Source of the DNA: Candidatus Omnitrophota bacterium | Lineage (GTDB): Bacteria > Ratteibacteria > UBA8468 > B48-G9 > DTJG01 | Direction of reading: 5' to 3' | DNA length: 64,000 nt | Assembly (NCBI GenBank): GCA_023818965.1 | Contig: JAMWCD010000008.1 | Coordinates: 47,086-111,085, forward strand | In this document: positions 6,792-45,240 of the stretch, one piece after another | Position numbering within the stretch: the first letter of the stretch is position 1 | Layout: each line of letters begins with the position of its first letter | The notes under the pieces: model-generated | Databases searched by the model: none | The model's input: the letters and a program-made list of their open reading frames with translations, nothing else | What the model was told of the DNA's origin: nothing | Program-made: the position numbers and the translations under genes

Positions 6792-7198
6792 AAATTTTAT
6801 TTCAATTCCCCTTTTAATTTTCAGGGGGACTACGGGGGATTTAAGTAGTTTCTCCCTTTTTTAAATTCTTCTTTCATCCTCCCCCTTTGTAAAGGGGGAC
6901 CACAGGGGGATTTTAAAAGTAGTTTCTCCCTTTTTAAAGGGAGATGCAAGAGGGATTTTAGCCCATCCTTTTGGTTATTCTTTGCCTCGTTTCCTCTCCC
7001 TTGAGGGGAGAGGACAAAAGGTGAGGGTGGCTGTGTAGGAGAATAACCTCCCCTTGCATCCCCTCCTTTCAGGAGGGGAAAGAGGGGAGGTGGCAAAGGG
7101 GGACTACGGGGGATTCAAAAGGAGGGAGAGCAGGAGGGAAAGAGGGGAGGTGATAAAGAGGGATGCAGGCGGATTGAAATAGCGCGATGCAATATTTC
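6792..7198. repeat. palindromic repeat array (F1, F2, F4) including a 140-bp composite unit duplicated at 26718-26860
   Basis: 'agcccatccttttgg[tc]tattctttgcctcgtttcctctcccttgaggggagaggacaaaaggtgagggtggctgtgtaggagaataacctccccttgcatcccctcctttcaggaggggaaagaggggaggtgg' is near-identical at both loci. Confidence 0.85.
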
Positions 7199-10239: not shown

Positions 10240-10530
10240 ATTCTCCCCCTTTTTAACCTCCCCTTGCATCCCCTCCTTTCAGGAGGGGAAAGAAGGGAAG
10301 TGCCAAAGGGGGACTGAGGGGGATTTAAATCCACCCCAACCCTCCTTTAGAAAAGGAGGGAGAAAATTTCCCCCTTTTTCAAATCCCTCCTCCAATTTCC
10401 CCCTTTTTTAACCTCCCATTGCATCCCCCCTCCTTGCAGGAGGGGAAACAGGGGAAGTGGCGAAGGGGGACTAAAGGGGATTGAAAAGTAGGGAGAGCAG
10501 GCGAAGGAAGAGGTACAATAAGATGATACA
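10240..10530. repeat. palindromic repeat array (F4, F1, F3)
   Basis: 'cctccccttgcatcccctcctttcaggaggggaaaga' occurs twice here. 'atccaccccaaccctcctttagaaaaggagggag' is also present. Confidence 0.8.
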
Positions 10531-26313: not shown

Positions 26314-26895
26314 AAGTAGATTTATCCACAACAACATTATTAAATCCCCCTTTTATAAATCCCGCTCGTTTCTTCCCCCTTTCATAAAACCTCCTCTTTT
26401 AACTTCCCCCTTTTTCAAATTCCCCTCCAATTTCCCCCTTTTTCAAAGGGGGACAAAGGGGGATTTAAATCCACCCCAGCCCTCCTTTAGAAAAGGAGGG
26501 AGAAAAATATAATTTCCCCCTTTTGTAAAGGGGGACGCAGGGGGATTAAAAAGGAGGGAGAGGAAGGAAGGTAAAGGGGACTAAAGGGGGATTGAAAAGT
26601 AGGGAGAAGAATATAATTTTCCCCTTTTTCAAATTCCTCCTCCAATTTCCCCCTTTCATAAAGGGGGATTGAGGGGGATTTAAGGTAGTTTCTCCCTTTT
26701 TCAAAGGGAGATGCAAGAGGGATTTTTAGCCCATCCTTTTGGCTATTCTTTGCCTCGTTTCCTCTCCCTTGAGGGGAGAGGACAAAAGGTGAGGGTGGCT
26801 GTGTAGGAGAATAACCTCCCCTTGCATCCCCTCCTTTCAGGAGGGGAAAGAGGGGAGGTGGTAAAGGTGGATTAGGGGGGATTTTAAGAGGCAAA
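26314..26895. repeat. large palindromic repeat array (F1, F3, F2, 140-bp composite, F4)
   Basis: Contains the second copy of the 140-bp composite unit at about 26718-26860. Confidence 0.85.
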
Positions 26896-36951: not shown

Positions 36952-37777
36952 ATTTTTCAAAAAATCTGTTGAGAAAAACAGGGTCTGTCATGCAATCATT
37001 ATCTATGGTGGTTCATATGAAACAAGAAGCCATGCATCCCTGATTGCTGCAAAAATTCTTGAATGTCAGAACTCACCTGAAATTTGCGGAAAATGTTATT
37101 CATGTAGAACTATTGAATCAAAAAATTATCCTGACCTTCACATCATAAAACCAGAGAAAAGAAATCTATCCATTGATGAGGTCCGCTCGATTAAAGAACA
37201 GATGTATATAAAGCCATATCTTGGTAGATACAGAATTTTTGTCATTGAATCTGACTGGATGCAGGCACCTGCTGCAAACAGTTTATTGAAAATTCTTGAA
37301 GAACCACCTGCCTATGGAATTATAATAATTCTCACCCGGAATAATAAAAATTTTGTTCCTACAATCGTTTCCCGTGCAATAAATTTGAGATTGAACATTG
37401 AAATTGAAAATCTTGAGAAAGATAATTTTGATAGGATTCAAAACCTTATTAACTCAACAAATCAAAAGAAACTTGCACAGATGATTGAGATAGCAGGCGA
37501 AATCGCAAAAGATTCAACAAGGGAAGAGATTGAAGAAATCTTTGATACAATGATTTTATCAGCAAGGCACAACCTCCTTGAAAATATTGCAATTGGCGAA
37601 TCACCGTTGCACCAGAGTCAATCATCGGGTATAATTAAACTGGATGACTATAGGATACTAAGCAAAATTCTTGATAAAAGAGTTTATCTGAAGTTCAATG
37701 TAAACATCAGAATGTTTCTGGAAGTTCTGGCATTGTATATTTCTGTGCCGAAGTGGCGGAACTGGCAGACGCGCTAG
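36929..37777 (+). CDS. holB: DNA polymerase III delta-prime subunit
   Basis: 'HAIIIYGG', a zinc module 'CGKCYSCRTIESKNYPDLHII', and 'ILEEPP'. The 3' end overlaps tRNA-Leu by 31 nt. Confidence 0.8.
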   Translation: MNIKEITEFFKKSVEKNRVCHAIIIYGGSYETRSHASLIAAKILECQNSPEICGKCYSCRTIESKNYPDLHIIKPEKRNLSIDEVRSIKEQMYIKPYLGRYRIFVIESDWMQAPAANSLLKILEEPPAYGIIIILTRNNKNFVPTIVSRAINLRLNIEIENLEKDNFDRIQNLINSTNQKKLAQMIEIAGEIAKDSTREEIEEIFDTMILSARHNLLENIAIGESPLHQSQSSGIIKLDDYRILSKILDKRVYLKFNVNIRMFLEVLALYISVPKWRNWQTR

Positions 37778-37830
37778 GTTCAGGACCTAGTGGTGGCAAC
37801 GCCGTCGGGGTTCAAATCCCCGCTTCGGCA
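37747..37830 (+). tRNA. tRNA-Leu (anticodon CAG), class II with long variable arm
   Basis: Acceptor GCCGAAG/CTTCGGC. Anticodon arm CTAGG-TTCAGGA-CCTAG. T-arm GGGG-TTCAAAT-CCCC. Discriminator A. CCA is not encoded. Confidence 0.85.
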
Positions 37831-37974
37831 CAAATTTTTTTTCTCACGGGGATTTGAATTGGAGCGAAGTAAGGGATTGCGAGCTGGCGCAGCAATCCCA
37901 GCGGACGGCGACCCGAGCCGTAGTGGGAGGCGAGGGCGCCAAATCCCCGCTTCGGCACAATTTTTTTTCTTACG

Positions 37975-41654: not shown

Positions 41655-41751
41655 AGTAAAATTATATGCTATGCACTGATTATTTCAAAATCATTGCATC
41701 TTAAAATTTTTAAAAATTGACGCAATCGCTATGATGTGGTTAATTATTCCT

Positions 41752-42210
41752 ATGAAACAACAAATCAAAATTGAAAATAAAAAGGCATTTCACGATTATC
41801 ACATCCTTGAGACGATTGAGGCAGGTATTGAATTGAAAGGATCTGAAGTAAAATCAATCAGGCAGGGTAGTGTAAGTTTAAGGGATGCTTATGCAGCATT
41901 TGATGGTAACCAGTTGTACCTTTATAAGATGCATATTGCACAGTATCCGGGTTCATTTGAGAAAATTGACCCCATGAGGAAAAGAAGGCTTCTTCTTCAT
42001 AAACATCAACTTCTTAGATGGCAGAAAAGAGTTGAAGAAAAAGGATTGACAATAGTACCCCTTTCACTGTATACTAATAATAAGGGAATTATCAAGGTAA
42101 ACATAGCACTTGTTAAGGGTAAAAAGCTCTTTGATAAACGTCGAGACATAAAGGAAAAGGAGACCAGAAGACAAATTGAGAGACAAAAAAGAAATATGGG
42201 GGCGAAATAG
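41752..42210 (+). CDS. smpB: SsrA-binding protein
   Basis: 'IENKKAFHDYHILETIEAGIELKGSEVKSIR...LRDAYAAFDGNQLYL...IAQY...DPMRKRRLLLHKHQL'. The ATG at 41752 is preferred. Confidence 0.9.
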   Translation: MKQQIKIENKKAFHDYHILETIEAGIELKGSEVKSIRQGSVSLRDAYAAFDGNQLYLYKMHIAQYPGSFEKIDPMRKRRLLLHKHQLLRWQKRVEEKGLTIVPLSLYTNNKGIIKVNIALVKGKKLFDKRRDIKEKETRRQIERQKRNMGAK

Positions 42211-42545
42211 GTCTCGACAGGGGGCAGGAGTGAGAAAAGCTGCCGACCGAGTCGCCGGAGGCTCGTTAAAAACCGGCAAAAAGACAGCTGCCACAACAGC
42301 TAATTGTCTGGCTGCATAAATTTGCAGCCACCTGACAGAATGCCTGCCCTCGGCATTCTGACCCAGGTCGGATGAGGGCTCGTTTCAGTTTCCGTCGCCT
42401 CAGGAAACTGAAATTAAAAACAATGGGGCAGGTGCTCCAGTATCCTGTCTCGGGGAGACTGGAGACACTTGATAAAACCGGGACTATGTCGGTAGATGCT
42501 TTTCTACTTCCCCTCTGGACGCGGGGGCAGTACCCGCCGCCTCCA
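42198..42545 (+). ncRNA. ssrA: tmRNA (ssrA), one-piece; tag reading frame ends ...A-N-C-L-A-A-stop
   Basis: 5' 'GGGGGCGAAATAGGTCTCGACAGGGGG' is comparable to E. coli 'GGGGCUGAUUCUGGAUUCGACGGG'. 3' 'GGACGCGGG-GGCAGTA-CCCGC-CGCCTCC-A' is comparable to E. coli 'GGACGCGGG-UUCAACU-CCCGC-CAGCUCC-A'. The acceptor helix has a G3:U wobble. The internal ORF 'GCT AAT TGT CTG GCT GCA TAA' follows 'gttaaaaaccggcaaaaag'. It lies immediately downstream of smpB. Confidence 0.8.
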
Positions 42546-42699
42546 CTGTTGTAAGATATTGTTCTTTGGAAAATTTGATTTACTGGTGTACGTAGCGTCC
42601 AGAGAAGGGTTCGGGAAACTCGTTTCCCGATTAATGCATTTGGGGGATGACTTTGAGAAGGGGGAATCGCCCCCTTCTCAAGGAGCGATAGCGACGGAC

Positions 42700-42845
42700 G
42701 GGGGGGCACTTGTCGCCTCCACTGCCACCTCCTTTTTCTCCCCTCCTGAAAGGAGGGGATGCAAGGGGAGGTTGAAATCCCCCTCAGTCCCTCTTTGTGA
42801 AAGGAGGAAGGATAGAGGGAGAATATAAAAGTGGGAATGGAAAGA
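42700..42845. repeat. palindromic repeat array (F4 and F1 in reverse orientation)
   Basis: 'ctcccctcctgaaaggaggggatgcaaggggaggttgaaatccccctcagtccctctttgtgaaaggagg'. Confidence 0.7.
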
Positions 42846-44879: not shown

Positions 44880-45240
44880 GAAACTATTTTATCCACATCT
44901 CCTTTCCCTAATTCCCATCAATTCCCCCCCAATCCCCCTTAGTCCCCCTTTGCCACTTCCCCTCTTTCCCCTCCTGAAAGGAGGGGATGCAAGGGGAGGT
45001 TAAACCTAAAGGAGGGTGGGGGTGGATTTAAATCCCCCTTAGTCCCCCTTTGGAAAAGGGGGAAGGTGGAAAGAGGATTTGAAAAAGGGGGACGAGAAGG
45101 GGGATTTTGGAAAAGGGGGAGAATGAAAAAGGGATTTATAAAAAGGGGGAATGGAAGGGGGATTTAGGAGGGCGGGGTGGATTTTTCCTGCCCAAGTTCC
45201 CCCTCTTTTCCAAAGACGGGGCCTGGGGGATTAATGGTGA
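44880..45240. repeat. palindromic repeat array (F4 reverse, F3 perfect palindrome, several F1 reverse)
   Basis: 'aaacctaaaggagggtgggggtggatttaaatcccccttagtccccctttggaaaagggggaagg'. Confidence 0.8.

Follow-up and report, generated by a model that had tools for sequence, protein, structure and literature searches.

A one-piece tmRNA with a GG-type T-loop and a 13-nt smpB overlap in a Ratteibacteria lineage

A tmRNA T-loop with GG in place of UU has already been described and is known as the alphaproteobacterial and mitochondrial type (PMC1168896). An overlap between smpB and the tmRNA gene is on record for Carsonella ruddii, an extremely reduced insect endosymbiont, in which only half of the strains have it; the survey authors, who in 2014 covered 2012 complete genomes, "found it nowhere else" (Hudson, Lau & Williams 2014, PMC4131195). 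SmpB of Carsonella has no C-terminal tail and carries variable, "apparently random" extensions, and the idea that the overlap creates a non-stop smpB mRNA was published for this organism (PMC4131195). For Ratteibacteria, catalogue entries for tmRNAs of the class "standard" already exist.

In this study, we examined a candidate tmRNA gene next to smpB in a window of 64,000 nt (the whole stretch of DNA analyzed) from an uncultured bacterium affiliated with Ratteibacteria/Omnitrophota. Close relatives were collected by exact-protein look-ups and one metagenome pattern scan, and the matches listed from a scan of genome contigs, mostly from distant phyla, were used as a background set. Covariation was assessed in an alignment of 32 relatives, and T-loops and D-loops were compared across 38 unique one-piece tmRNAs. 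With a probability of roughly 85%, the features of the locus are jointly explained by a functional ssrA gene with a GG-type tRNA-like domain and a 13-nt overlap with smpB, accompanied by a putative internal promoter and non-stop feedback.

The tmRNA gene and its tag

An Infernal search with Rfam was strongly positive. The covariance model RF00023 matched positions 42198 to 42548 with 149 bits (E = 1.5e-58; gathering score, 47) and over its full length (model positions 1 to 374 of 374), which bears out the earlier note that had placed a tmRNA here; the tmRNAs of relatives score 140 to 186 bits with the same model. The gene starts with GGGGGCGAAATAGGTCTCGACAGGGGG and ends in GGAC-GCGGG-GGCAGTA-CCCGC-CGCCTCC-A (42517 to 42545). 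CTG follows directly after the discriminator A, so that CCA is not encoded. The order of the parts is standard, from the 5' end through the tag to the 3' end. All sequence features quoted in the earlier note lie where it had located them, including the G3:U pair of the 7-bp acceptor stem GGGGGCG/CGCCUCC, which, like the discriminator A, is unvarying in the 32 relatives.

Table 1. Features of the smpB-ssrA locus (window coordinates)
Feature	Position	Strand	Description	Basis
smpB coding sequence	41752..42210	+	152 aa	TIGR00086 equivalog, 182 bits (cutoff 119); ORF list
Putative sigma-70-like promoter inside smpB	42046..42075	+	TTGACA, 18 nt, TATACT; predicted transcription start ~42082	11/12 consensus matches
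ssrA, one-piece (standard) tmRNA gene	42198..42545	+	348 nt to discriminator A; CCA not encoded	RF00023; covariation in 32 relatives
smpB/ssrA overlap	42198..42210	+	13 nt, acceptor 5' strand and D-loop start, G GGG GCG AAA TAG	
D-loop analogue	42205..42218	+	AAAUAGGUCUCGAC; resembles alphaproteobacterial consensus GAAAuAGGAUCGAC	Rfam alpha_tmRNA consensus
Predicted tag frame	42290..42319	+	GCC ACA ACA GCU AAU UGU CUG GCU GCA UAA; encodes ATTANCLAA, appended peptide A-ATTANCLAA	Comparative alignment; ARAGORN
T-arm	42521..42537	+	GCGGG-GGCAGUA-CCCGC; stem 42521-42525/42533-42537, loop 42526-42532	Sequence; identical in 38 relatives
Acceptor 3' strand and discriminator	42538..42545	+	CGCCUCC (42538-42544; U pairs with G3) and A (42545)	Sequence; RF00023; relatives
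Downstream hairpin-rich unit	42546..42724	+	Ends in degenerate second tmRNA 3'-end copy (42699-42724); direct repeat D1	

Comparative analysis supported the fold. The acceptor helix and the pseudoknots, on whose formation the earlier note had let its call depend, do form: acceptor, helix 2 and pseudoknot stems pair and covary in the 32 relatives. Over the tmRNA helices, 87.1% of the alignment cells are paired, and compensatory (double) changes occur in 68 of 101 pairs. None of 500 shuffles reached the observed level, and slid controls gave 42 to 55%. Helix 2, which corresponds to helices 2 to 4 of the covariation analysis, comprises 27 pairs that are 88 to 98% paired, 20 of them with compensatory changes. 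Each pseudoknot region, i.e., PK1 upstream of the resume codon and PK2 to PK4 downstream of the tag, contains one covarying stem paired to 92 to 99% (helices 6, 9/10, 13, and 15); the crossing stems, as derived from the sequence of the window itself, are paired in 55 to 75% of cells of a sequence-only alignment, with many double changes. This confirms that positions 42198 to 42545 are a genuine, full-length, one-piece tmRNA, and a mostly ordinary one.

The ANCLAA ending proposed for the tag in the earlier note holds, as part of ATTANCLAA. Its view that the resume codon is ambiguous was superseded by comparison with the relatives, which fixes the predicted codon as GCC: the motif CUGCC is unvarying in 31 of 32 aligned relatives (CUGCU in the remaining one) and the triplet preceding the resume codon is GCU or ACU. 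ARAGORN, when given a sequence with a repaired T-loop, concurs (coding part 93 to 122, tag ATTANCLAA). Of the 37 unique GG-T-loop relatives listed, 35 retain this frame, with the pattern A[TNEAV][TP]AN-x-[LM]AA-stop, and the motif search located no resume site in the other two. The stop codon of the tag lies in the loop of a conserved hairpin (alignment columns 119 to 138). The cysteine singled out earlier as unusual is a local variant; this position of the tag varies among relatives (C/Y/V/F/A/T/L), and a conserved or functional role for the cysteine was therefore rejected.

In the preferred reading, the tmRNA would be charged by AlaRS through G3:U after post-transcriptional addition of CCA. 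Together with SmpB, it would enter the empty A site of ribosomes stalled on non-stop mRNAs, where translation would resume at GCC and A-ATTANCLAA would be added as a degradation tag.

Overlap with smpB and a putative internal promoter

The adjacent smpB gene, for which an alternative ATG start exists upstream at 41731, encodes a protein with an intact C-terminal tail including the DKR motif, and its homologues carry PF01668. Its 3' end reads AAT ATG GGG GCG AAA TAG, in which GAK and the stop are encoded by the 5' end of the tmRNA. In the coding sequence, the shared nucleotides complete the Met codon (third base) and provide Gly-Ala-Lys and the stop; smpB thus terminates, at 42208 to 42210, within the mature tmRNA and on the same strand. 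The overlap asserted in the earlier note was found as described, with one correction to its count: the 13 nt include the stop codon, whose first base comes 10 nt after the start of the RNA. As a consequence of the overlap, the invariant 5' end of the tmRNA determines the C terminus of SmpB (x-G-A-K-stop).

At the level of sequence, the overlap is conserved in most relatives recovered and is not peculiar to one genome. It is present in all close relatives and in about 21 distinct loci with SmpB identities down to 55%, the overlap-type relatives have the GAK end in common, and the synteny of smpB and ssrA is kept in every relative. At the loci L233 and L236 (JGI Ga0315298 and Ga0078972), SmpB is 99% identical. 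In L265 (77% SmpB identity), a small indel has abolished the overlap and set the two genes 7 nt apart; in sister lineages that share the tRNA-like domain, they are 15 to 127 nt apart. Among other phyla, overlaps of 11 nt (L016, Atribacterota) and 1 nt (L034) were found, as were gaps of 4 to 19 nt (L025, L058, L071, L075, and L026).

A promoter inside smpB (Table 1) probably drives ssrA. The TTGACA hexamer, which encodes Leu-Thr, is fixed in all 21 overlap-type loci at a site where neighboring synonymous positions vary, and it is always followed at a distance of 18 nt by TAxxxT. At the equivalent site, it occurred in none of 52 other smpB genes scanned. In relatives without the overlap, the spacer between the two genes contains a strong promoter of this kind just before the tmRNA. 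No terminator-like site was predicted on the plus strand between smpB and ssrA.

From these features, we infer promoter function, read-through, and formation of a non-stop smpB mRNA by RNase P. Transcription of ssrA would start mainly at its own sigma-70-type promoter, and RNase P would remove a leader of about 115 nt from the pre-tmRNA. Transcripts from the smpB promoter would read through into ssrA, and cleavage at G42198 would strip the stop codon from the smpB message. Late rounds of SmpB translation would then become substrates of trans-translation, yielding SmpB(1-148) tagged with AATTANCLAA, a self-limiting loop as proposed earlier for Carsonella. If ssrA mostly starts internally, the share of smpB mRNAs affected would depend on the rates of read-through and processing.

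The strongest competing explanation, to which we assign somewhat less than even odds, is that of a normal tmRNA whose overlap arose neutrally as the genome was compacted and has no effect on regulation: SmpB, having lost a stop codon of its own, would now end at the first one in frame, the UAG of the invariant D-loop motif AAAUAGG, and an unchangeable tmRNA 5' end would be all that keeps the overlap in place. Since the overlap is not obligatory, as seen from its loss in L265 without obvious harm and from gaps that, with L265 included, span 7 to 127 nt in sister lineages, such an origin in compact genomes is plausible. The independent overlaps and near-abutments in other phyla point the same way, as do GAK residues set by the RNA rather than selected as protein, and an apparent own promoter would make co-transcription unnecessary for the supply of tmRNA. 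Against neutrality, the overlap has been kept in about 21 distinct lineages despite the divergence of SmpB, although a single point mutation in the tail, rich in Lys, Arg, Gln, and Glu, would create an earlier stop. Moreover, with no predicted terminator between the genes, read-through and hence RNase P-truncated smpB mRNAs would be hard to avoid.

The GG-type tRNA-like domain and the downstream unit

The T-arm has regular geometry, with a 5-bp stem and a 7-nt loop. The earlier note had correctly stated that its loop sequence departs from the consensus; the departure from UUCRANY concerns positions 54, 55, and 58 (U54, U55, and A58 are all missing). It is not unusual, as the loop belongs to the known GG type (PMC1168896). 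Judged by sequence, this is a known variant that here occurs in a standard gene of another phylum; the same loop is normal in accepted alphaproteobacterial tmRNAs, so that GGCAGUA does not speak against a tmRNA. In E. coli tmRNA, m5U54 and Psi55 derive from T-loop uridines, and a GG-type loop therefore does not have the uridines that would become these residues. Across the 38 related tmRNAs, the T-loop and the D-loop GAAAUAGG are unvarying, the D-loop analogue showed two variable positions only in the 32 relatives, and both loops agree with the Rfam alpha_tmRNA consensus.

ARAGORN reported no tmRNA in the window and found none of this lineage in 14 related loci. In silico mutagenesis revealed that any single T-loop change back toward the canonical sequence restores detection; the program misses the gene because of its non-canonical T-loop. 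Three substitutions thus make a whole tmRNA lineage invisible to ARAGORN and, hence, to Prokka and other pipelines built on it; covariance models detect it easily.

Horizontal transfer or recombination from an alphaproteobacterial tmRNA, or from that of one of its phages, is an unlikely but not far-fetched source of the domain. The exact 23-mer GGGGGCAGTACCCGCCGCCTCCA, spanning the remainder of the T-stem, the T-loop, and the acceptor 3' strand, is shared with alphaproteobacterial two-piece tmRNA genes, many of which also have the preceding CTGGACGC in common with this lineage, and the 5' half GGGGGCGAAAUAGG is near-identical between the two. Integrative elements are known to recombine preferentially at the tmRNA 3' end (PMC11915505, PMC4131195), and the extra 3'-end copies found downstream show recombination at the tmRNA site. 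However, outside this domain the molecule (helix 2, four pseudoknots, and one-piece order) is standard and not alpha-like, with RF00023 matching at full length, and in a domain so extremely constrained, convergence or shared ancestry could account for an identity of about 30 nt. Moreover, canonical T-loops accompany the same 5' end in three metagenomic one-piece genes.

When viral contigs were searched with the 23-mer 3' end, at least 120 matches were obtained, and in a 15-locus sample scanned with Rfam these were alphaproteobacterial permuted tmRNA genes and not relatives. It was through this search that the alpha-type nature of the tRNA-like domain first surfaced.

The gene is followed by a hairpin-rich unit, which carries the degenerate second tmRNA 3' end at a distance of 176 nt. 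In the near-identical strain L233, an exact copy of the 3' end stands at the same place, compared with which the copy in the window is decaying. Homologous units are located 3' of 11 of 40 related tmRNAs; the intervening "element" comprises 125 to 165 nt with hairpins, has no integrase, and is sometimes tandemly repeated. The unit folds stably (z = -4.3) and belongs to no Rfam family; its first hairpin has no further copy in the window. It is probably an integration or duplication scar outside the functional tmRNA. Derivation from an attP site is not supported: the viral contigs searched contained neither the unit-specific junction (0 matches) nor a matching attP. Two further interpretations were rejected. 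As a permuted, two-piece gene, the unit reached only 21.7 bits with RF04321 (gathering score, 47), driven by the real 3' end, and as a tRNA-like mini-domain, it gave minimum free energy folds with hairpins and no acceptor-type pairing.

It is extremely improbable that the locus is a tmRNA pseudogene or island-generated fragment with the real ssrA elsewhere in the genome: the degenerate second 3' end, the negative ARAGORN result, and the lack of an encoded CCA would fit, but the gene has its full length and both ends, an undamaged tag frame, and helices that are all preserved and covary, it stays next to smpB in every relative, the T-loop fully accounts for the failure of ARAGORN, the decaying fragment is the downstream copy and not the gene, and the Rfam scan found no second tmRNA in the 64 kb of genome seen.

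Significance and comparison with known systems

With a functional GG-type ssrA and its smpB overlap as the preferred reading, the gene organization is modestly interesting and leaves the general picture of trans-translation unchanged. An overlap reported in 2014 as a Carsonella-only curiosity is here stable, conserved, and combined with a full-length SmpB, which offers a cleaner natural system for asking whether tmRNA maturation feeds back on SmpB via non-stop mRNA. Since the GG T-loop occurs in a one-piece tmRNA of an unrelated phylum, the elbow design would not be tied to gene permutation, and it raises the testable question of how D-loop, T-loop, and SmpB recognize each other without the usual modified uridines. 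A more far-reaching possibility, which we regard as tentative and rather doubtful, is that smpB-ssrA forms a conserved autoregulatory module throughout a free-living lineage of candidate-phylum level and that the GG elbow works in its one-piece tmRNA. If so, SmpB synthesis would be throttled and its product tagged by its own trans-translation activity, and the domain would function without m5U54, Psi55, or A58, independently of a two-piece architecture.

In comparison with the standard one-piece tmRNA (RF00023; E. coli SsrA model), the molecule has the G3:U acceptor, discriminator A, stem-less D-loop, helix 2, PK1, resume codon, nine-codon LAA tag with its stop in a hairpin loop, PK2 to PK4, and T-arm, and SmpB is present and encoded next door. 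It differs from the E. coli type in its GGCAGUA instead of UUCRANY T-loop, without the m5U54/Psi55 sites and A58, in the lack of an encoded CCA, in the position of its 5' end within smpB, and in its invisibility to ARAGORN. With alphaproteobacterial two-piece tmRNAs (RF01849/RF04321; Caulobacter and the mitochondrial one of Reclinomonas), it shares features of the tRNA-like domain only; this domain is nearly identical, with the acceptor GGGGGCG/CGCCUCC, the D-loop, and a T-loop of the form GGCRGUA. In contrast to these, the gene is not circularly permuted (the two-piece order, with the CCA-bearing acceptor 3' piece first, is absent, in line with the RF04321 score below the gathering score), it encodes one RNA chain with four pseudoknot regions and no CCA, and it comes from an unrelated candidate phylum.

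The extra tmRNA 3'-end copies, extending from within the T-stem to the gene end in direct, attL/attR-like orientation, resemble the scars of genomic islands (PMC4131195, PMC11915505), from which they differ by the short, integrase-free intervening element. As in the overlap type of Carsonella ruddii (PMC4131195), the smpB stop lies inside the mature tmRNA on the same strand; unlike in Carsonella, the SmpB tail is intact, the overlap is fixed at 13 nt with a fixed GAK end in many lineages, and the putative internal promoter is conserved.

Identity, fold and T-loop of the tmRNA gene

Searching the window with the Rfam tmRNA model RF00023 (gathering score, 47) gave a match over the whole model at positions 42198 to 42548 of the forward strand (149 bits, E = 1.5e-58), and all tmRNA motifs quoted in an earlier note on this DNA were found in the sequence where it had placed them. 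The acceptor stem contains the G3:U pair (GGGGGCG/CGCCUCC), and CCA is not encoded, since CTG directly follows the discriminator A. The window ssrA is a real tmRNA with the standard mechanism. ARAGORN detected no tmRNA in the window.

Coordinates of features in the window and of downstream units in related loci
Feature	Location	Positions	Strand	Basis or remark
smpB	window	41752-42210	+	TIGR00086, 182 bits
Promoter-like TTGACA-18-TATACT inside smpB	window	42046-42075	+	11/12 matches
Tag ATTANCLAA	window	42290-42319	+	comparison with relatives; ARAGORN on T-loop-reverted gene
T-arm GCGGG-GGCAGUA-CCCGC	window	42521-42537	+	window sequence
Discriminator A	window	42545	+	window sequence
Degenerate tmRNA 3'-end copy	window	42699-42724	+	direct repeat, end of unit 42546-42724
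tRNA-Leu(CAG)	window	37747-37831		canonical T-loop
TTCCCCTCCTGAAAGGAGGGGATGCAAGGGGAGG copies	window	7047-7080, 10257-10290, 26815-26848	-	
TTCCCCTCCTGAAAGGAGGGGATGCAAGGGGAGG copies	window	42738-42771, 44966-44999	+	
Hairpin-rich downstream units	L001; L083	3295-3596; 2799-2974		unit loci
Hairpin-rich downstream units	L084, L090, L091, L214, L223, L224, L231, L233, L236, L303			further loci

The nearest SmpB homologues are encoded by uncultured bacteria with the label Candidatus Ratteibacteria or Omnitrophica/Omnitrophota. Loci for comparison were obtained from a genome_contigs scan, whose listed matches came mostly from distant phyla and served as background, from the contigs of six exact-protein look-ups, and from one metagenome scan with the query GGGGGCGAAATAGGNNTCGAC. 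In all close relatives, the RF00023 match (140 to 186 bits) begins within smpB, 13 nt from its end; ARAGORN reported a tmRNA in none of them.

In a sequence-only alignment of 32 unique tmRNAs of the lineage, RNAalifold revealed compensatory changes in 43 of 73 nested pairs. Nested and crossing pseudoknot stems together comprise 101 pairs with 87.1% of cells paired and double changes in 68 pairs; these values were reached by none of 500 shuffles, and slid controls paired at 42 to 55%. One stem in each of the pseudoknots PK1 to PK4 was paired at 92 to 99%, and the crossing stems, defined on the window sequence and scored in the sequence-only alignment, at 55 to 75%. The acceptor stem, the whole T-arm and most of the D-loop are invariant. 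Pairing and covariation across the 32 relatives thus argue that the acceptor helix and pseudoknots form, and, together with the covariance-model match, uphold an assignment that the earlier note had let stand or fall on these points.

The non-canonical T-loop GGCAGUA is present as described before, but it is not new. The alpha_tmRNA consensus (...CCGGG-GGCgGUA-CCCGG-CGcCUCCACCA...GGGGgCGAAAuAGGAUCGAC) matches the window tmRNA in T-loop, acceptor stem and D-loop. Burks et al. (2005, PMC1168896) noted that the T-loop UU "seen in most sequences" is changed to GG in the Reclinomonas mitochondrial tmRNA, and that Caulobacter has G in place of the second U. The GG loop therefore represents a known type of tRNA-like domain, which the window shares with two-piece alphaproteobacterial tmRNAs, although its gene is one-piece and from an unrelated phylum. 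GGCAGUA was found in 39 of 42 one-piece genes of a metagenome sample that share the tmRNA 5' end of the window. The window tRNA-Leu(CAG) has a canonical T-loop (GGUUCAAAUCC), so the GG loop is specific to the tmRNA, with ordinary tRNAs of this organism keeping the standard loop.

In silico mutagenesis showed that each single reversion, G54U, G55U or G58A, restores detection by ARAGORN, so that pipelines based on this program may leave such genes unannotated; adding CCA did not restore it. Ratteibacteria tmRNA genes are nevertheless already catalogued: in the 2025 tmRNA database, 39 Ratteibacteria genomes contribute 31 "Standard" tmRNAs (PMC11915505, Table S2). ARAGORN also misses a one-piece tmRNA (165 bits) in the Omnitrophota MAG nzgw297 (L003, 3033 to 3437), whose T-loop is likewise non-canonical but reads UCCAAUU and whose CCA is encoded.

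The 3'-terminal 23-mer of the window tmRNA, GGGGGCAGTACCCGCCGCCTCCA, occurs exactly in at least 120 loci on viral or proviral contigs (L092 to L211, IMG/VR), followed by CCA in all and preceded by a standard 5' end in none; a sample of 15 proved to be alphaproteobacterial two-piece (permuted) tmRNA genes (Rfam RF01849 and RF04321). Such genes, e.g., in L137 (3313 to 3612) and L113 (4922 to 5222), often have tRNA genes nearby and may be phage encoded or lie in the host flank of a prophage.

Tag peptide and downstream repeats

The resume codon, previously called ambiguous, is fixed as GCC by comparison with relatives, because CUGCC is constant in 31 of the 32 aligned sequences (CUGCU in L270) while the preceding triplet alternates between GCU and ACU. 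Tags of the lineage follow the pattern A[TNEAV][TP]AN-x-[LM]AA, with C, Y, V, F, A, T or L at position x. The tag ATTANCLAA with its cysteine is thus confirmed, but since this position is variable, the cysteine is a one-base variant (UGU versus UAU) rather than a conserved oddity and, judging from these sequences, incidental. It was absent from all ARAGORN-called tags of background loci. Two long tmRNAs of ~410 nt (L032, 936 to 1346; L019, 2520 to 2937) had unusually long ARAGORN-called tags of ~30 residues ending in PL or AH (ADTKVPATVDQLLSTMQVVPGPVMPVALPL; ADKTSVLTFNGLMGAMQVVTPSRPLMAPVFAH).

Exact copies of the tmRNA 3' end were located 150 to 190 nt downstream in 11 of 40 related tmRNAs, some as two tandem units. 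These units, 150 to 190 nt long and each closing with a 3'-end copy that is exact or decaying, are homologous between genomes, with identity to the tmRNA beginning within the T-stem, and form stable hairpins (z about -4); the window unit is single-copy there. Folding gave no tRNA-like pairing, Rfam families did not match, no integrase lies within the units, and no attP counterpart was found on viral contigs. The units are most economically read as probable scars of an integration or a duplication at the tmRNA T-arm. The copy is exact in strain L233 and decayed at the same place in the window and L236 (3-nt deletion plus substitutions), and therefore looks dispensable. Separately, the otherwise AT-rich window contains five dispersed copies of the GC-rich TTCCCCTCCTGAAAGGAGGGGATGCAAGGGGAGG on both strands, which may be a REP/MITE-like element; around 44900 to 45230, a copy lies within a longer G/C-rich low-complexity stretch.

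Overlap of smpB and ssrA

The 3' end of smpB reads AAT ATG GGG GCG AAA TAG. The last 13 nt, which take in the stop codon, also form the start of the tmRNA, confirming that the two genes overlap, as the earlier note had described. Many close SmpB homologues terminate in ...GAK, the exact coding content of the tmRNA 5' end, and the preceding residue (M, R, T, S or K) always has an NNG codon, dictated by the first tmRNA nucleotide, G1. The overlap is fixed at 13 nt in ~21 unique loci, at SmpB identities as low as 55%, with the SmpB tail including the DKR motif intact. It was lost in L265, a relative with 77% SmpB identity in which an indel leaves a 7-nt gap, and in sister lineages that share the tRNA-like domain, smpB and ssrA are 15 to 127 nt apart. 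ARAGORN placed ssrA downstream of smpB on the same strand in 21 of the 78 other loci of the genome scan (L003 to L080), five of them (L025, L058, L071, L075 and L026) with gaps of 4 to 19 nt. Independent overlaps were seen in an Atribacterota MAG (L016, 2949 to 2959; 11 nt, with the smpB end TGG GGG CGA TAG, ...WGR-TAG, within the tmRNA 5' end) and in an Oscillospiraceae MAG (L034, 2935; 1 nt).

The -35-like TTGACA inside smpB encodes Leu-Thr of the SmpB motif GLT[IL]VPL. All 21 overlap-type loci have it unchanged despite variation at nearby synonymous sites, and TAxxxT follows after 18 nt in each; none of 52 other smpB genes scanned (L003 to L080) has TTGACA at this site. Where a gap separates the two genes, relatives have a strong predicted promoter shortly before the tmRNA. 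The sequence TTGACA-17-TATACT of L281 and L291 stops only 8 nt short of G1, so transcription would begin very close to the mature 5' end and leave RNase P little or nothing to trim. In L004 (~2945 to 2985), L222, L234, L281 (~2700 to 2738) and L291, the predicted promoter is near-consensus and its -35 hexamer (ggTTGACA) contains the smpB stop TGA. From these motifs we infer a dedicated ssrA promoter across the lineage, which in overlap-type genes would lie within smpB and give a leader of ~115 nt.

No terminator-like site was predicted between smpB and ssrA, and smpB transcripts should therefore read into ssrA. We further infer that RNase P would cut this transcript at 42197/42198, leaving an smpB mRNA ending in ...AAU AU-3' with no stop codon, and that later translation rounds would yield a tagged product, SmpB(1-148)-AATTANCLAA.

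Most notable at this locus is the conserved overlap, together with the conserved promoter predicted inside smpB, since an arrangement that had been published for Carsonella alone is thereby extended. There, smpB runs into ssrA, tmRNA maturation should yield a non-stop smpB mRNA, and the overlap was "found ... nowhere else" according to the authors (Hudson, Lau & Williams 2014, PMC4131195); our search of the literature after 2014 found no later report. Compared with Carsonella, the window lineage also has the overlap, here conserved and combined with a conserved predicted promoter inside smpB.
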